Shown here in pieces: positions 111 to 10,646 of a DNA stretch of 64,000 nt; position 1 is the first letter of the stretch; each line of letters starts with the position of its first letter. The DNA lies in NCBI GenBank assembly GCA_964504285.1, contig CAZDDZ010000005.1, forward strand, positions 1,084-65,083. Direction: 5' to 3'. The notes below the pieces were generated by a model that saw only the letters and a program-made list of their open reading frames with translations, made no database searches and was not told the DNA's origin. This stretch comes from an uncultured Pseudoflavonifractor sp. GTDB taxonomy: Bacteria > Bacillota > Clostridia > Oscillospirales > Oscillospiraceae. Position numbers and translations under genes: made by a program.

Positions 111-1001
111 TTACATTATATCGGAAAATAGCTGCGCCAAATGCAGCTTGCTCTCCTCAGTTAAAGGCTTAAAGGGGGCGCGACAGGTGCCGCAGTCAAT
201 CCCTTGAAGGGTAAAGCCGTACTTTACAGCGTTAAAGATCCCTGCCTTTACCATTGCTTCTACTCGTAAATTGAGCCGCGCTTGCGTAGTGTAAGCTTCT
301 TTAATACGGCCTTGAAGAAAAAGGTTGCGTATCTCCACAAACATGGGAGCAAATAAATTAACAGTCGTCCCTATGGTGGCGTGGGCACCCATGGAAAGGG
401 CGCCCAGGTACTGCTCGTCAAAGCCGTTAAAAAGAATTTTTTCGGGGTGCGCCGCATGAATGCGATCCATGGCGTAGAGATTATTAGAGGTATGCTTAAT
501 GCCGATAACATTGGGATTGCGCAGCAGCCGTTCGGCATTATCCTTGGAAAATTCGACACCGGTAAATTGCGGAATATTATAAATAATGGCCTTAATTCCC
601 GCTACTGCTTGGAGCACATCCTCGTAATAGGACATGATTTCATCCATAGAAAACTTATAGTAGTAGGGCGGTATCATAGAAACAGCCGTTACTCCGGCAC
701 TTTGCGCGTGCCTGGCCAGATCAATGACATCATGGGTGCGAATGGTGCCGATGTGAGAGATAACAGGCACTCGCCCGTTAACAGTGTCCATGACGCACTC
801 AAGAATTTTTTTGCGCTCCTCCAGACTTAGCAGAAGTCCTTCTCCCGAGGAGCCGCAGCAGTAGAACCCCTCTACACCACTTGCAAGCTGTTGCTCCACC
901 ACCTGTTTAAGGGCACTGTAATTGACATTCTCATTGGCATCGGTAGGGGTAATCAGAGCAGAAAAAATTTTTTTAAGACCGCTAAAATCATCACTTACCA
1001 T
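111..1001 (-). CDS. DapA/NanA-family class I pyruvate aldolase (dihydrodipicolinate synthase / N-acetylneuraminate lyase family)
   Basis: ORF-track protein has GSSGEG (GTTGE-like), IYNIP and a GIKHTS Schiff-base lysine context. ATG at 1001 is preferred; an alternative TTG start is at 1010. It overlaps the upstream SDR stop. Confidence 0.8.
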   Translation of the reverse strand: MVSDDFSGLKKIFSALITPTDANENVNYSALKQVVEQQLASGVEGFYCCGSSGEGLLLSLEERKKILECVMDTVNGRVPVISHIGTIRTHDVIDLARHAQSAGVTAVSMIPPYYYKFSMDEIMSYYEDVLQAVAGIKAIIYNIPQFTGVEFSKDNAERLLRNPNVIGIKHTSNNLYAMDRIHAAHPEKILFNGFDEQYLGALSMGAHATIGTTVNLFAPMFVEIRNLFLQGRIKEAYTTQARLNLRVEAMVKAGIFNAVKYGFTLQGIDCGTCRAPFKPLTEESKLHLAQLFSDIM

Positions 1002-1825
1002 GCCGTCCAACCACCATCAACAATGACATTGGAGCCGGTCATATACTTAGACGCGTCCGATGAAAGAAATACAATAGCGCCGTTGTATTCATCCTCGTTT
1101 GCCATTCTGCCGATGGGCATTCTGGCACAGTAGTTGTCCTGAAATCTCTTGTCCTGCGTGTCGCGGAACACACCGGAGGGGGTAAGCGTATTGACGCGAA
1201 TGCCCTGTTTGCCCCAATAAGTAGCAAGGTAGCGGGTCAAATTATAAATGCCGGATTTGGCGGCCGAGTAAGCCACCGGCTTTATAAAGGGAACGCCTGT
1301 CAGTTCCTTTTTGTAGGCATAGATGTCTTGGATGGGAGAGACCATGCCATAGATAGAGCCCACATTAATGATAGAGCCGCCCTTACCTTCCGCCACCATG
1401 CGTGCGCCCACTGCTTGGCAGGCAAGAAAGGTACCGGTCAGATTGGTCTCCACTACCTCGCGAAAGACCTCCTCGGGGAAATTTTCAAAGGGACCGGAAA
1501 CCTCCGGCGGAGCAGAGGGTTGGGTATCAATGCCGGCATTGTTAATCATTACGTCAGGCGCTCCCCCCCAGACCTGCTTTATTTGATCCAGCGCAGCCTC
1601 AATGGTCTCCTTTTTAGTAATGTCCACAGCATAAAAGTTTAGTCTGTCGCCATGAAACTCTTGAGCAGGAAATACTTTATCTACACGCTCGGGGGAAGGG
1701 TTTTTTGTAAAAATAGCGACTTTGGCACCGCGACTGTATAGCTCTTTGGCAAATTGAGCGCCAATTTGTCCCAGTCCGCCTGAAATAACACAGATTTTGT
1801 TTTCTACACTGAATAGCTTGTCCAT
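995..1825 (-). CDS. Short-chain dehydrogenase/reductase (SDR) family oxidoreductase
   Basis: Rossmann motif ISGGLGQIG and catalytic YSAAK motif. Confidence 0.85.
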   Translation of the reverse strand: MDKLFSVENKICVISGGLGQIGAQFAKELYSRGAKVAIFTKNPSPERVDKVFPAQEFHGDRLNFYAVDITKKETIEAALDQIKQVWGGAPDVMINNAGIDTQPSAPPEVSGPFENFPEEVFREVVETNLTGTFLACQAVGARMVAEGKGGSIINVGSIYGMVSPIQDIYAYKKELTGVPFIKPVAYSAAKSGIYNLTRYLATYWGKQGIRVNTLTPSGVFRDTQDKRFQDNYCARMPIGRMANEDEYNGAIVFLSSDASKYMTGSNVIVDGGWTAW

Positions 1826-1878
1826 TGTAAGTTCCTTTCATCGGCTAAGCAAGTAATCAAGCTGCATTGAGGCACTGA

Positions 1879-2286
1879 CTATGCACAGCCCACCGTAATA
1901 AGAATATTTGCAAATGTTCGCCCTTCCCCTGTTGCAATGGCAAGAGCAAGGGGAGGGTCTCCCATGCAGGTGTTATAAAATCCAATTCGGTCAAGCCCCT
2001 CCAGCTCCAGTCCCAAAATAGACCTGAAATCATGAAAGATGTGGGGCTCTGATTCGTTTTCCGGCACCATGACCTGGGCTTTCTCCACAGAAACAGCAGT
2101 CATTATGGTTTCCAGCACGTCTGTGACGGTTGGTAAGCCGCGTTTTAAGCCGAGATAGACCTTGGGACAGCTTCCCGTTTTTTCGGCCAGGGGGTAATTT
2201 CCGTCGGCAATCAAAATTTTACTGCCATGCCCACAGTGGGAGAGCGCATCCATAATTTCAGGGTGAATGCAGGTAGTTAAAAGCAT
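1879..2286 (-). CDS. RbsD/FucU family protein (sugar pyranase/mutarotase)
   Basis: 135 aa; N-terminal CIHPEIMDALSHCGHGSKILIADGNYP resembles the FucU/RbsD GHGD..I.D motif. Confidence 0.7.
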   Translation of the reverse strand: MLLTTCIHPEIMDALSHCGHGSKILIADGNYPLAEKTGSCPKVYLGLKRGLPTVTDVLETIMTAVSVEKAQVMVPENESEPHIFHDFRSILGLELEGLDRIGFYNTCMGDPPLALAIATGEGRTFANILITVGCA

Positions 2287-2295
2287 GGAAATACC

Positions 2296-2907
2296 CTACC
2301 TTTCGTTTTCACGCAACTGTCCCAGCGTACCACCGGGATGCCAACGCACATATTGCTGCGGTGTAATTTCGTGGTGAGCCTGCAATAAAACCGTGAGGGT
2401 TTGAAGTACAAGTGTCTCAGCCAAAATGGACATTCTGGGCGCGCGGCCCAGGGGGCCACCCTCTGCTTTTGCCATGGCCAGCAAGTGCACATCACTTTGT
2501 ACAGCCAGCCAGGAGTGGGCGTTGCCGCTGACCCCGATGACCCGACAACCGTTATTTTTAACCGCAAGCACAGTGGCGCGCATTTCAGCGGTTTCACCGC
2601 TGTTAGAAATAAAAATAACCACATCCCCCGGCACCAACTGCCCGCAGGAGCCATGCACCGCCTCGGTGCCATGGAGAAAGTAGGCCGGAGTTCCCGTAGA
2701 GGAGAGCAGGGAAGCGATGTAGCCGGCGATGTGAGCCGGTTTTCCAATGCCGGAAATGTGGACACGATTTCCCTGCGCCTGAGCAGCCAAAATAAGCTCA
2801 GCGGCACAGGAAATTTGATCCAGGCCATCTTCGCCGATACAGCCATCTAAATCAGTCCTGACCGTAGTGAGAAAAGAGCGACCTGCATTGCGTGCTTGTT
2901 CCTTCAT
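2296..2907 (-). CDS. Single-domain SIS sugar-phosphate isomerase, KdsD/GutQ-like (arabinose-5-phosphate isomerase-like, no CBS domains)
   Basis: [36 protein letters not shown] and ISNSGETAE motifs. Start moved to ATG 2907 (GAAGG RBS); the 3102 extension overlaps the kinase gene. Confidence 0.75.
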   Translation of the reverse strand: [203 protein letters not shown]

Positions 2908-2941
2908 GAAAAGTGCACCTTCTTTAGAGGGGTAATGTTGG

Positions 2942-9677: not shown

Positions 9678-9691
9678 GTATGATATCATAC
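9678..9691. promoter_or_regulatory. Candidate GntR/FadR-type operator (perfect 14-bp palindrome)
   Basis: gtatgatatcatac lies 37 nt upstream of the binding-protein start. It is preceded by a half-site repeat, tgtatgat. Confidence 0.4.
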
Positions 9692-9864
9692 TGCCTGACG
9701 ATAGAGTACACTATTTAAGCAATCTTTTCCATAGACAAAACTTCCAAAGAAAAATACAATTACTTGGATGATGTGACAGAATTCGACTTTTTCCATAGCG
9801 ATCATGGTGGTTTTTGCACAAAACGAGTCGTTTCGAAATAATATGTGGAATTTTTAAATTGTTC

Positions 9865-9873
9865 TGATATAAT
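9865..9873 (+). promoter_or_regulatory. Candidate extended -10 promoter (TGATATAAT) for the GntR gene
   Basis: TGnTATAAT motif about 80 nt upstream of the regulator start. Confidence 0.35.
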
Positions 9874-9904
9874 ATAGTAATACAATCACACATTTGCCAA
9901 CTGC

Positions 9905-9923
9905 TGTAAGGATTATCCTTACA
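9905..9923. promoter_or_regulatory. 19-bp perfect palindrome (candidate autoregulatory operator or leader hairpin)
   Basis: tgtaaggat-t-atccttaca lies just upstream of the GntR RBS. Confidence 0.35.
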
Positions 9924-9950
9924 ATGGGTTGATGCAAGGAGATGTATCGT

Positions 9951-10646
9951 ATGGAAGCAATTGAGAAAGTGTCTGCTGTACAACAGGTGGAAAACAGCAT
10001 TAGGTCTTATTTAATGAGCGAAAGTGTGTCGGTAGGGGATAAGCTGCCGACAGAAAAACAACTTTGCGAAAATCTTCTTGTAGGCCGCGGAACGGTGCGA
10101 GAGGCAATTCGCTTGCTCCAAGCAAAGGGGTTTGTGGAAATTCGTCCCGGCAGAGGTGCGTTTGTGCTGCGGAAAAAGGAGCCGGAGCGGGAGAATATTG
10201 CAAACTGGTTTCGAAAGAATGAAATTGAAATTAAGGATTTAATTGATGTTCGTGCAGCCATTGAGCCGCTTGCAGTAAAGCTGGCCATTGAAAAGGCCAC
10301 CGAGGAAGAAATTTACCAGCTCTGTGAAATTCAGACCCAGTCGGAACTGGCGGCTGAAAAAAACGATGCGCAGGCGTTGGCTATTTGCGATGAAAAGTTT
10401 CATTCCCGTATTATGGAGTATAGCCGTAATAAAATTCTTATGGATATCAATAAAAAGATTATCGGTAATTTAGCAACATTCCGTGGAGTTACCTTTAATA
10501 TTCAAAAAAATGTGGATAATTTTGTGCCGGCACACGCAGCTATTATTGAAGCATTTAAGCGCCGGGATGTGCTATTGGGACAAAAAAGCATGTCTGCCCA
10601 CCTAGACTGCGTCTATGTCGACCTAGAGCGAAGCAAGGACATTTAG
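9951..10646 (+). CDS. GntR-family transcriptional regulator, FadR subfamily (FCD C-terminal domain)
   Basis: wHTH LPTEKQLCENLLVGRGTVREAIRLLQAKGFVEIRPGRGAFV. ATG 9951 is preferred (AAGGAG 9 nt upstream); the ORF track starts at 9942. Confidence 0.85.
   Translation: MEAIEKVSAVQQVENSIRSYLMSESVSVGDKLPTEKQLCENLLVGRGTVREAIRLLQAKGFVEIRPGRGAFVLRKKEPERENIANWFRKNEIEIKDLIDVRAAIEPLAVKLAIEKATEEEIYQLCEIQTQSELAAEKNDAQALAICDEKFHSRIMEYSRNKILMDINKKIIGNLATFRGVTFNIQKNVDNFVPAHAAIIEAFKRRDVLLGQKSMSAHLDCVYVDLERSKDI

Follow-up and report, generated by a model that had tools for sequence, protein, structure and literature searches.

A candidate operon for the catabolism of 2-keto-3-deoxy sugar acids by way of D-arabinose in an uncultured Pseudoflavonifractor species

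Introduction

What would be degraded by an operon that couples an amino-acid-type ATP-binding cassette (ABC) importer to two pyruvate aldolases, a ribokinase-like kinase and a relative of the arabinose-5-phosphate isomerases? The question is raised by a locus in a 64-kb stretch of DNA (64,000 nucleotides; contig CAZDDZ010000005.1, assembly GCA_964504285.1) from an uncultured Pseudoflavonifractor species, referred to here as the window; loci fetched for comparison carry "L" numbers. Retro-aldol cleavage of 3-deoxy-D-manno-octulosonate (KDO) gives pyruvate and D-arabinose (EC 4.1.2.23). The answer proposed here, with belief and doubt about evenly balanced, is that the operon catabolizes one or more 3-deoxy-2-ulosonic (2-keto-3-deoxy) sugar acids, and that in the branch supplying the kinase KDO is the best candidate.

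A sequence-only reading of the window had outlined such a scheme, in which a keto-deoxy acid such as KDO is cleaved to pyruvate and a pentose that is then ring-converted, phosphorylated, and isomerized. The logic of that scheme fits the gene neighborhoods of other genomes, in some of which the kinase-isomerase module lies beside D-arabinofuranosidase-family genes and in many of which it is joined to pyruvate aldolases and carboxylate importers; its substrates we still infer, and the case for KDO, now stronger than it was, is a plausible one.

The proposed pathway

The HAAT/Liv-type ABC importer would take up the acid through a receptor whose pocket residues suggest that a polar carboxylate has replaced amino acids as its ligand. 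One of the two aldolases, the NanA-type lyase or the HpcH protein, would split the acid to pyruvate and D-arabinose, as context and chemistry suggest. The RbsD/FucU protein, judged by its family, would turn the pyranose into the furanose, and the PfkB kinase would act on O5 to give D-arabinose 5-phosphate (A5P), a prediction that draws on its altered pocket and on the D-arabinofuranosidase neighborhoods of its relatives. The SIS protein, of which family and catalytic residues are observed and the activity is predicted, would isomerize A5P to D-ribulose 5-phosphate (Ru5P) for the pentose phosphate pathway. A sister acid, or the aldehyde that it yields, is probably handled by the second aldolase together with the short-chain dehydrogenase/reductase (SDR) coupled to the lyase; the pectin sugar 3-deoxy-D-lyxo-heptulosaric acid (Dha) and acids of the 2-keto-3-deoxygluconate (KDG) type are candidates. 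Dha from pectin rhamnogalacturonan II (RG-II) may be that sister acid and is an attractive idea. Every substrate named in this scheme is a prediction, set beside gene content, operon structure, residue conservation, and neighborhood statistics that are observed.

The PfkB-SIS-RbsD module

The SIS protein (2296..2907, minus strand) has 203 amino acids, in which Pfam finds one SIS domain and no CBS domain. It scores 116 bits against the KpsF/GutQ profile TIGR00393 (cut-off 203.7) and 110 against KdsD (cut-off 505), with only the SIS part aligned. Alignment to 2xhz and 5uqi reveals equivalents of K59, H88, E111, E152, and H193 (E. coli KdsD numbering); the GIGK and WHPGG motifs are also kept, and the catalytic set is invariant among 22 orthologs. 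Matches in the PDB are 5uqi/5vhu (E 2.6e-30 for 5uqi), 2xhz, which is the KdsD SIS domain, and 3etn from Bacteroides fragilis. BLASTP gives 40% identity to C_RS16165 of E. coli CFT073, a single-domain KpsF/GutQ-family protein whose old locus tag is presumably c3406; the 198-residue 5uqi chain appears to be this same protein, as its HMMER alignment reads the same as the BLASTP alignment. The sequence-only reading had described the window protein as a CBS-less relative of KdsD and GutQ and had proposed profile and structure comparisons. These agree with the description, both in the matches confined to the SIS part and in the 2xhz alignment with its catalytic residues, all five being kept and c3406 being the closest solved relative. 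The window protein belongs to the KpsF/GutQ/KdsD group as a member without CBS domains and is, on the strength of its residues, a predicted A5P isomerase. CBS-less A5P isomerases appear in the literature, among them CtAPI of Clostridium tetani (Cech et al., 2017, as given in the reference list of PMC11301363).

The E. coli CFT073 gene lies in an operon (L096; NC_004431.1, 3249590-3254819) with genes for a PRD-domain protein, a phosphotransferase system (PTS) EIIC component, a MalY/PatB-family protein, and a "phosphoglycerate dehydrogenase"; a 2-hydroxyacid dehydrogenase likewise accompanies the SIS gene in several Clostridia loci. In five loci from Anaerovoracaceae and some Oscillospiraceae (L055, L056, L057, L061, and L069) the SIS gene occurs without PfkB; its companions there are a 2-hydroxyacid dehydrogenase gene and a gene of the DHDPS family, an arrangement that points to another use for the isomerase.

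The PfkB kinase (2942..3910, minus strand), a predicted D-arabinose 5-kinase, has ribokinases as its nearest relatives and scores 280.7 bits against the ribokinase model TIGR02152, below the cut-off of 299.65. In place of the ribokinase motif GSxNxD it carries GSFVLD, with Val at the position of Asn14 of E. coli RbsK, which is Asn in all four PDB ribokinases aligned and which we take to be one of the residues that hydrogen-bond ribose. Asp16, GGKGANQ, Glu143, and AAGDSF are kept. A residue other than Asn occupies this position in 79 of 81 kinase orthologs (Val in 73), and GS[FL]V[ML]D is the pattern in nearly all of them. D-arabinofuranose and D-ribofuranose differ only at C2. The third member of the module (1879..2286, minus strand) belongs to the RbsD/FucU family of sugar ring-form converters (pyranases/mutarotases; Pfam RbsD_FucU, 86.7 bits) and falls short of both equivalog models, with 39.6 bits for RbsD (cut-off 93) and 19.5 for FucU (cut-off 141).

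The distribution of the module was scanned in one genome per species, and neighborhoods were counted in the best 80 SIS loci. Relatives of the SIS protein were found in at least 458 species, mostly of Lachnospiraceae, Oscillospiraceae, Anaerovoracaceae, and Treponema; in the closest species-level relatives the protein is 70-76% identical. Where the locus leaves room for it (75 loci), PfkB is the gene immediately upstream of SIS in 71, and RbsD/FucU follows downstream in 45 of 77. In many species PfkB-SIS(-RbsD) stands alone beside a LacI regulator. Candidate carriers in culture are Marasmitruncus massiliensis, Anaerotruncus colihominis DSM 17241, Oscillibacter valericigenes, Qiania dongpingensis, and Lientehia hominis.

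Clustering of all module neighbors brought out DUF2961 (glycoside hydrolase family 172, GH172) genes, which adjoin the module in six loci (L064, L066, L068, L071, L082, and L089). In L066, L068, and L071 DUF2961 shares an operon with PfkB-SIS: three DUF2961 proteins precede PfkB-SIS in L066; L068 has a LacI gene, DUF2961, SBP_bac_1, two permeases, a DUF4185-like protein, PfkB, and SIS; and SIS is followed by DUF2961 in L071. In L082 a DUF2961 gene, which is divergent, and a GH116 gene flank LacI-PfkB-SIS. In L064 (5619-9836) and L089 (6336-10621) the GH172 gene is directly upstream of SIS, with an ornithine cyclodeaminase/mu-crystallin gene upstream. GH172 enzymes are exo-alpha-D-arabinofuranosidases, a GH116 enzyme is an exo-beta-D-arabinofuranosidase, and DUF4185/GH183 enzymes are endo-D-arabinanases (PMC10115798, PMC10509167); in the literature some GH172 enzymes are also alpha-D-fructofuranosidases, a caveat for the sugar assignment. 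Because the kinase has lost the Asn, the KdsD residues are kept, and D-arabinofuranosidase families are neighbors, the simplest reading of the module is that it would take D-arabinose to A5P and on to Ru5P.

Importers of the window and of related loci

The HAAT set in the window is complete, with one receptor, two BPD_transp_2 permeases, and two ATPases. All are encoded on the minus strand and were assigned with Pfam and, beyond the receptor, NCBIfam: the Peripla_BP_6 binding lipoprotein (8442..9641), a LivH-like permease (7471..8358), a LivM-like permease (6434..7459), and ATPases with LivG (5688..6446) and LivF (4942..5691) as best matches. The actual start of the receptor gene is at 9641, giving a protein of 399 amino acids whose lipoprotein signal, MKKLMALLLATAMLVSMLVGC, ends in Cys; the ribosome-binding site is GGAGGG. 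Its ortholog family comprises about 65 clusters at 64-86% identity, below which identity drops to 49% and then to 30%.

An hhalign comparison with LivJ indicates how the binding pocket has changed. For LivJ we take Ser79 and Thr102 to hold the ligand carboxylate, Glu226 the alpha-ammonium group, and Tyr18, Tyr150, and Tyr202 the hydrophobic side chain. Equivalents of Ser79 and Thr102 are kept and are invariant in the receptor family. Glu226 is replaced by Ser261, inside an invariant GFSSMSS loop, while His235 and Leu182, both invariant in the family, stand in place of Tyr202 and Tyr150. The AlphaFold model of the receptor (pLDDT 87) has among its fold neighbors HAAT receptors with 2-oxo acids (4obb, 4dqd) and with aromatic acids. 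Owing to these pocket residues and the neighbors that bind 2-oxo acids, a polar carboxylate, predicted to be a polyhydroxy acid, appears plausible as the ligand, and on the same sequence and model evidence a branched-chain amino acid does not appear plausible. An ordinary amino-acid importer is disfavored, as is a role in glycated-amine uptake, because the receptor lacks the ammonium-binding Glu of LivJ.

HAAT systems stand beside the D-arabinose module in four architectures (window/L007, L041/L063, L044/L046, and L047). Elsewhere the same importer has other partners: L092 and L095 encode a GntR regulator, the receptor, LivHMGF, HpcH, an SDR, and a DHDPS-family protein without the kinase module, and L093/94 encode the receptor, LivHMGF, HpcH, a 2-hydroxyacid dehydrogenase, Eda, and a KDG-kinase-like PfkB near KduD-like and RpiB/DUF3666 genes. 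Since these neighborhoods share importer plus HpcH, that pair is the constant core, and it is always found with keto-deoxy sugar-acid genes. In L093 and L094 (5215-18571) the receptor relative is 67-72% identical, and the other side holds a split transketolase, a KduD-like SDR, RpiB/DUF3666, and two GntR genes; by gene content, these two loci would link the HAAT receptor family to unsaturated-uronate/KDG metabolism.

In other relatives the importer is a tripartite ATP-independent periplasmic (TRAP) transporter, a class of system that carries carboxylates. The nearest solved relative of the DctP receptor from the TRAP loci is 4pf6 of Roseobacter denitrificans (phmmer E 1e-69, Foldseek rank 1, 42% identity), behind which SiaP proteins rank at 25-31% identity. 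NCBI names the TRAP receptors of the sister loci SiaP (e.g., L074, 4911-5981), which is likely an annotation trap.

Aldolases, SDR, and fusions with the module

The lyase gene (111..1010, minus strand) likely starts at an ATG at 1001 that overlaps the SDR stop codon, as in L007. Previously described as a DapA/NanA aldolase, its product does belong to the DHDPS family (Pfam, 244.9 bits), and that assignment can be refined to a NanA-type class I pyruvate lyase: it scores 295.7 bits against the N-acetylneuraminate lyase model NF003164 (cut-off 281) and 238 against TIGR00683 nanA (cut-off 382), and its best PDB matches are NanA enzymes (E 1e-56). Equivalents of the Schiff-base K165, of Y137, and of the sugar-binding D191/E192 of E. 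coli NanA are retained. A role as KdgD dehydratase was rejected at 82-107 bits versus about 296 for NanA. NCBI rules would call the window gene "N-acetylneuraminate lyase", another likely annotation trap, and no locus has the rest of the sialic-acid pathway.

The HpcH/HpaI class II pyruvate aldolase (4114..4923, minus strand; Pfam 81.4 bits) matches the Pfam model from 9 to 217 of 221 and has 4mf4 and 3qz6 as PDB matches; the GarL, HpaI, and YfaU equivalogs give 71-104 bits against cut-offs of 369-441. It invariably follows LivF in loci that have the window's binding-protein family. The SDR (995..1825, minus strand; Pfam adh_short) lies below every NCBIfam cut-off, with 6uh2 and the gluconate 5-dehydrogenase 1vl8 as best PDB matches. 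It is translationally coupled to the lyase; L013, L041, L044, L046, L063, and L085 carry this SDR-lyase pair too, with identities of 71-76% and 58-66%. KduD-like enzyme, N-acetylmannosamine (ManNAc) dehydrogenase, and aldehyde reductase were tried as roles for the SDR, and no evidence discriminated among these three.

A DHDPS- or HpcH-family aldolase lies on the same strand within 6 kb of the module in at least 20 of 64 scored loci, in several gene orders. These include PfkB-SIS-HpcH-RbsD (L005/6, L043), SDR-NanA-PfkB-SIS-RbsD (L013, L041, L063, L085), SDR-NanA-HpcH-PfkB-SIS-RbsD (L044/46), and, in L010, a CUT2 sugar ABC system, Amidohydro_2, and a 2-hydroxyacid dehydrogenase followed by DHDPS-PfkB-SIS-RbsD. 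Oscillospiraceae and Treponema have the TRAP-type order IclR-DctP-DctQ-DctM-DHDPS-PfkB-SIS(-RbsD), with the full form in L065, L067, L073, and L081; in L074 and L079 the DHDPS open reading frame (ORF) of this arrangement was not picked up. A carboxylate importer, one pyruvate lyase, and the D-arabinose module, as the TRAP loci appear to encode, is the minimal set that KDO catabolism would need. That the window locus and its TRAP-, CUT1-, and CUT2-linked relatives encode the KDO aldolase (EC 4.1.2.23) and D-arabinokinase (EC 2.7.1.54) is a tentative proposal, which we credit somewhat less than the pathway as a whole. An oxidative, non-phosphorylative D-arabinose route (dehydrogenase, lactonase, dehydratase, aldolase) was rejected, a dehydratase being present in no locus.

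A 20-kb super-cluster in an Erysipelotrichaceae metagenome-assembled genome (L041, 603-20086) holds AraC, a CUT2 sugar ABC system, three DHDPS paralogs, a Zn-dependent alcohol dehydrogenase, and two SDRs, together with PfkB-SIS-RbsD, a HAAT ABC system, GntR, and a polysaccharide deacetylase.

Operon structure and regulation

The ORF map and the Pfam and NCBIfam profile searches place eleven co-directional genes on the minus strand and a divergent GntR/FCD regulator gene on the plus strand, all twelve where the sequence-only reading had put them. They form one operon-type unit, which runs from a promoter-like site (9900-9871, minus strand) to an intrinsic-terminator-like hairpin (37..81, minus strand) with a 20-bp stem and a T run, the regulator being divergent. 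Intergenic spacing is -16 to +83 nt; HpcH and PfkB alone are farther apart, by 203 nt. Three independent metagenome contigs (L007-L009) share the 12-gene order, with proteins 76-94% identical to those of the window, so the arrangement is not due to chance; a proposed check of neighborhood conservation has thus come out in favor of both this order and the PfkB-SIS(-RbsD) module. The order ends after the DHDPS gene. Continuation of the cluster past the window start was ruled out by the terminator after the lyase and by the unrelated genes at that place in L007.

The long gap contains a miniature inverted-repeat transposable element (MITE)-like insertion of about 163 bp (3954..4116) with 30-nt terminal inverted repeats that are 80% complementary. 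The interruption of the gene string by a MITE had been noticed in the sequence-only reading, and the element is indeed a real MITE-like repeat, because three further copies of this family (about 165 bp, with terminal inverted repeats TAGAGCGTTTCTGAAAAGT...ACTTTTCAGAAACGCTCTA) lie in the window, at ~21613-21777, ~27783-27946, and ~42590-42754, making four copies in 64 kb. The operon copy is not present in the orthologous locus L007.

The regulator (9942..10646, plus strand) has Pfam GntR and FCD domains of the FadR type; its best NCBIfam match is NanR at 97.6 bits, below the cut-off of 260. Palindromes had been reported in the control region, and both exist: a perfect one in the 5' leader, GTATGATATCATAC (9678..9691), a candidate GntR operator, is fully conserved in L007, and a 19-nt palindrome, TGTAAGGATTATCCTTACA (9905-9923), is conserved there only in part. 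The divergent protein is likely a repressor that acts at the conserved palindrome. Beyond the regulator, at 11047-15087 on the minus strand, translations give an 811-residue glycogen phosphorylase-like and a 478-residue glycogen synthase-like ORF, unrelated to the operon.

Weighing the alternatives

Several observations count against a single KDO pathway. L092 and L095 have the importer-HpcH-SDR-lyase block but no kinase module, and in L093/94 the importer block has Eda/KdgK in place of that module; for this reason the HAAT ligand may be another keto-deoxy acid, and the two modules may have been joined secondarily. Their junction in the window is precisely where the MITE lies, and a pure KDO route has no necessary role for the SDR. 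The lyase passes a curated N-acetylneuraminate lyase model (NF003164). The DUF4185 match in L068 is 39.1 bits, just below the Pfam threshold of 39.5, and in two of the six GH172 loci (L064, L089) SIS follows GH172 without PfkB, ornithine cyclodeaminase-like genes lying upstream and, in L089, an M20 peptidase gene as well; a possible amino-sugar or opine-like context for these two is at odds with D-arabinose. As to the TRAP receptors, the support that 4pf6 lends hinges on its being, as is presumed, a KDO complex. The stand-alone importer-HpcH-SDR-lyase block of L092 and L095 marks the window locus as two modules fused into one, perhaps for two related substrates. The main rival, rather unlikely in our estimate, builds on this and has the two working independently side by side. 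PfkB-SIS-RbsD would then serve free D-arabinose or D-arabinan, and HAAT, HpcH, SDR, and lyase an unrelated keto-deoxy acid whose products never reach the kinase, candidate substrates being Dha, acids of the KDG or 2-keto-3-deoxygalactonate (KDGal) type, or a glucarate-derived acid. The LacI-PfkB-SIS(-RbsD) units that stand alone in most species, the importer block found alone or with Eda/KdgK and DhuD/DhuI-like genes, and the MITE at the window junction all fit independence. It sits poorly with the joining of both gene sets in at least four gene orders and alongside transporters of four types (HAAT, TRAP, CUT1, CUT2), with the aldolase that nearly always abuts the kinase, and with the TRAP loci, whose enzymes are one aldolase and the module and nothing else.

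The remaining explanations change the substrate more radically. That the locus is a variant operon for sialic acid (N-acetylneuraminate, Neu5Ac, or 2-keto-3-deoxynononate, KDN), with a true N-acetylneuraminate lyase and the other enzymes processing ManNAc or mannose in a non-canonical way, is improbable; the lyase exceeds the NF003164 cut-off (295.7 vs. 281) and keeps the NanA Asp-Glu pair, NanR is the best match of the regulator, and the sister-locus TRAP receptors bear the NCBI name SiaP, but the TIGR00683 score is far below its cut-off, genes for NanK, NanE (or nanE-II/rokA), NagA, and NagB are absent from the window locus and from all related loci examined, the kinase is a pentofuranose-type ribokinase relative, the isomerase resembles A5P isomerases, and the nearest solved TRAP receptor, 4pf6, is no SiaP. 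Slightly less probable still is salvage of D-ribose or another pentose, in which SIS would be an alternative ribose-5-phosphate isomerase and the aldolases unrelated. Ribokinases are nearest to the kinase and RbsD-family genes are usual in ribose operons, but the ribose-binding Asn, invariant in ribokinases, is missing from the kinase, which also scores below the ribokinase cut-off, SIS has the A5P-isomerase residue set, the neighbors are D-arabinofuranosidase families, and an RbsABC transporter is absent. The sequence-only reading had also offered a glycated amino compound (Amadori/opine) pathway, with the Liv importer for the amino compound, a FrlD-like kinase, and a FrlB-like deglycase. The Liv-type transporter, the PfkB-SIS pairing that recalls FrlD/FrlB, and the GH172-SIS genes beside ornithine cyclodeaminase-like genes in L064 and L089, with the M20 peptidase gene in L089, speak for it; the amino-binding Glu is lost from the receptor, however, SIS is single and KdsD-type whereas FrlB has a double SIS of the GlmS type, the window kinase reaches 59 bits with the fructoselysine kinase model (cut-off 247), and two pyruvate aldolases would have no role there. 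This alternative has therefore been set aside as very improbable.

Significance

All proteins of the window locus belong to known families, and its overall logic mirrors that of the nan operon. Three features are new: a predicted D-arabinose module that begins with the kinase and keeps a fixed gene signature across hundreds of gut anaerobes, the proposed coupling of this module to the cleavage of ulosonic acids, and an amino-acid-type ABC system as the importer; in the literature searched, only isomerase-first routes of D-arabinose are discussed. Almost all Gram-negative bacteria make KDO, and plant pectin contains it, so its supply to the gut is steady; D-arabinose is released from mycobacterial and corynebacterial walls. 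If the KDO pathway is correct, it would be a widespread anaerobic means of scavenging KDO from Gram-negative lipopolysaccharide, capsules, and pectin RG-II together with D-arabinose from actinobacterial arabinan, with over 450 species among gut Clostridia and Treponema carrying PfkB-SIS, and it would form a cross-feeding link from Gram-negative cell-envelope turnover to Firmicutes. A Liv/HAAT-family ABC system would have been re-tooled for a sugar acid, extending the ligand range of HAAT receptors, and the puzzling CBS-less A5P isomerases of Gram-positive bacteria would gain a physiological role. The locus would also supply candidate sequences for KDO aldolase and D-arabinokinase and would correct likely mis-annotations as ribokinase, N-acetylneuraminate lyase, SiaP, and branched-chain amino-acid transporter.

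Comparison with known systems

The two reactions proposed for the module have a precedent from another Gram-positive anaerobe. In the 1960s Volk reportedly described, at the level of enzymes, a D-arabinokinase (EC 2.7.1.54) and a phosphoarabinoisomerase (EC 5.3.1.13) from Propionibacterium pentosaceum; the likeness is one of reactions, D-arabinose to A5P to Ru5P, and to our knowledge no genes have ever been assigned to that route. KDO aldolase (EC 4.1.2.23), said to have been described by Ghalambor and Heath in 1966, catalyzes the reaction proposed for one of the two window aldolases, a comparison that is again by reaction and not by sequence; both it and D-arabinokinase are known to us as activities only. 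Papers from 2023 and 2025 state that a KDO aldolase gene is not annotated in the E. coli genome (PMC10619137, PMC12199768). The literature searched, with subscription journals largely outside it, contained no description of a KDO catabolic locus, a D-arabinose kinase gene, or the physiology of A5P isomerases in Gram-positive bacteria, and only unrelated papers came up for c3406 and 4pf6.

The D-arabinan loci of Dysgonomonas gadei and Microbacterium arabinogalactanolyticum resemble the module's neighborhoods in having GH172, GH116, and DUF4185/GH183 genes beside genes of D-arabinose catabolism, with Ru5P as the proposed end product there too (PMC10115798, PMC10509167). A predicted fucose isomerase is the most abundant carbohydrate-active protein of D. 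gadei on D-arabinan, and the Microbacterium locus holds an isomerase and a kinase, both termed putative (PMC10115798, PMC10509167). In contrast, the Clostridia and Treponema loci carry the kinase-first pair, PfkB then SIS, and the window is without a glycoside hydrolase.

With LivJHMGF importers the window system shares the five components and the receptor fold (Foldseek TM 0.73-0.83 to LivJ/LivK-type proteins); it differs in lacking the equivalents of LivJ Glu226, Tyr202, and Tyr150, in its invariant Ser-rich loop, and in neighbors that are all sugar-acid enzymes. The single-domain A5P isomerases (c3406 in 5uqi/5vhu, B. fragilis 3etn, and CtAPI) are likewise proteins of about 200 amino acids with one SIS domain and the same catalytic set, c3406 being the one with 40% identity, and the organism here likewise has no evident need for KDO synthesis. 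Their physiological role was left open, whereas the window gene has a fixed partner kinase and catabolic neighbors; c3406 itself differs in an operon of PTS, MalY/PatB, and 2-hydroxyacid dehydrogenase genes.

The closest parallel in overall design is offered by the nan operons, in which a NanA-type class I lyase splits an imported 3-deoxy-2-ulosonic acid into pyruvate and an aldose that is then phosphorylated and isomerized, under a GntR/FCD regulator (NanR in that case); SiaP-like TRAP receptors in the sister loci add to the resemblance. Unlike them, the window has no NagA or NagB; it carries an HpcH aldolase and an SDR in addition, its importer is of the HAAT/Liv type, and in place of a ROK kinase and NanE it has a ribokinase-like kinase, a KdsD-type SIS protein, and RbsD/FucU.

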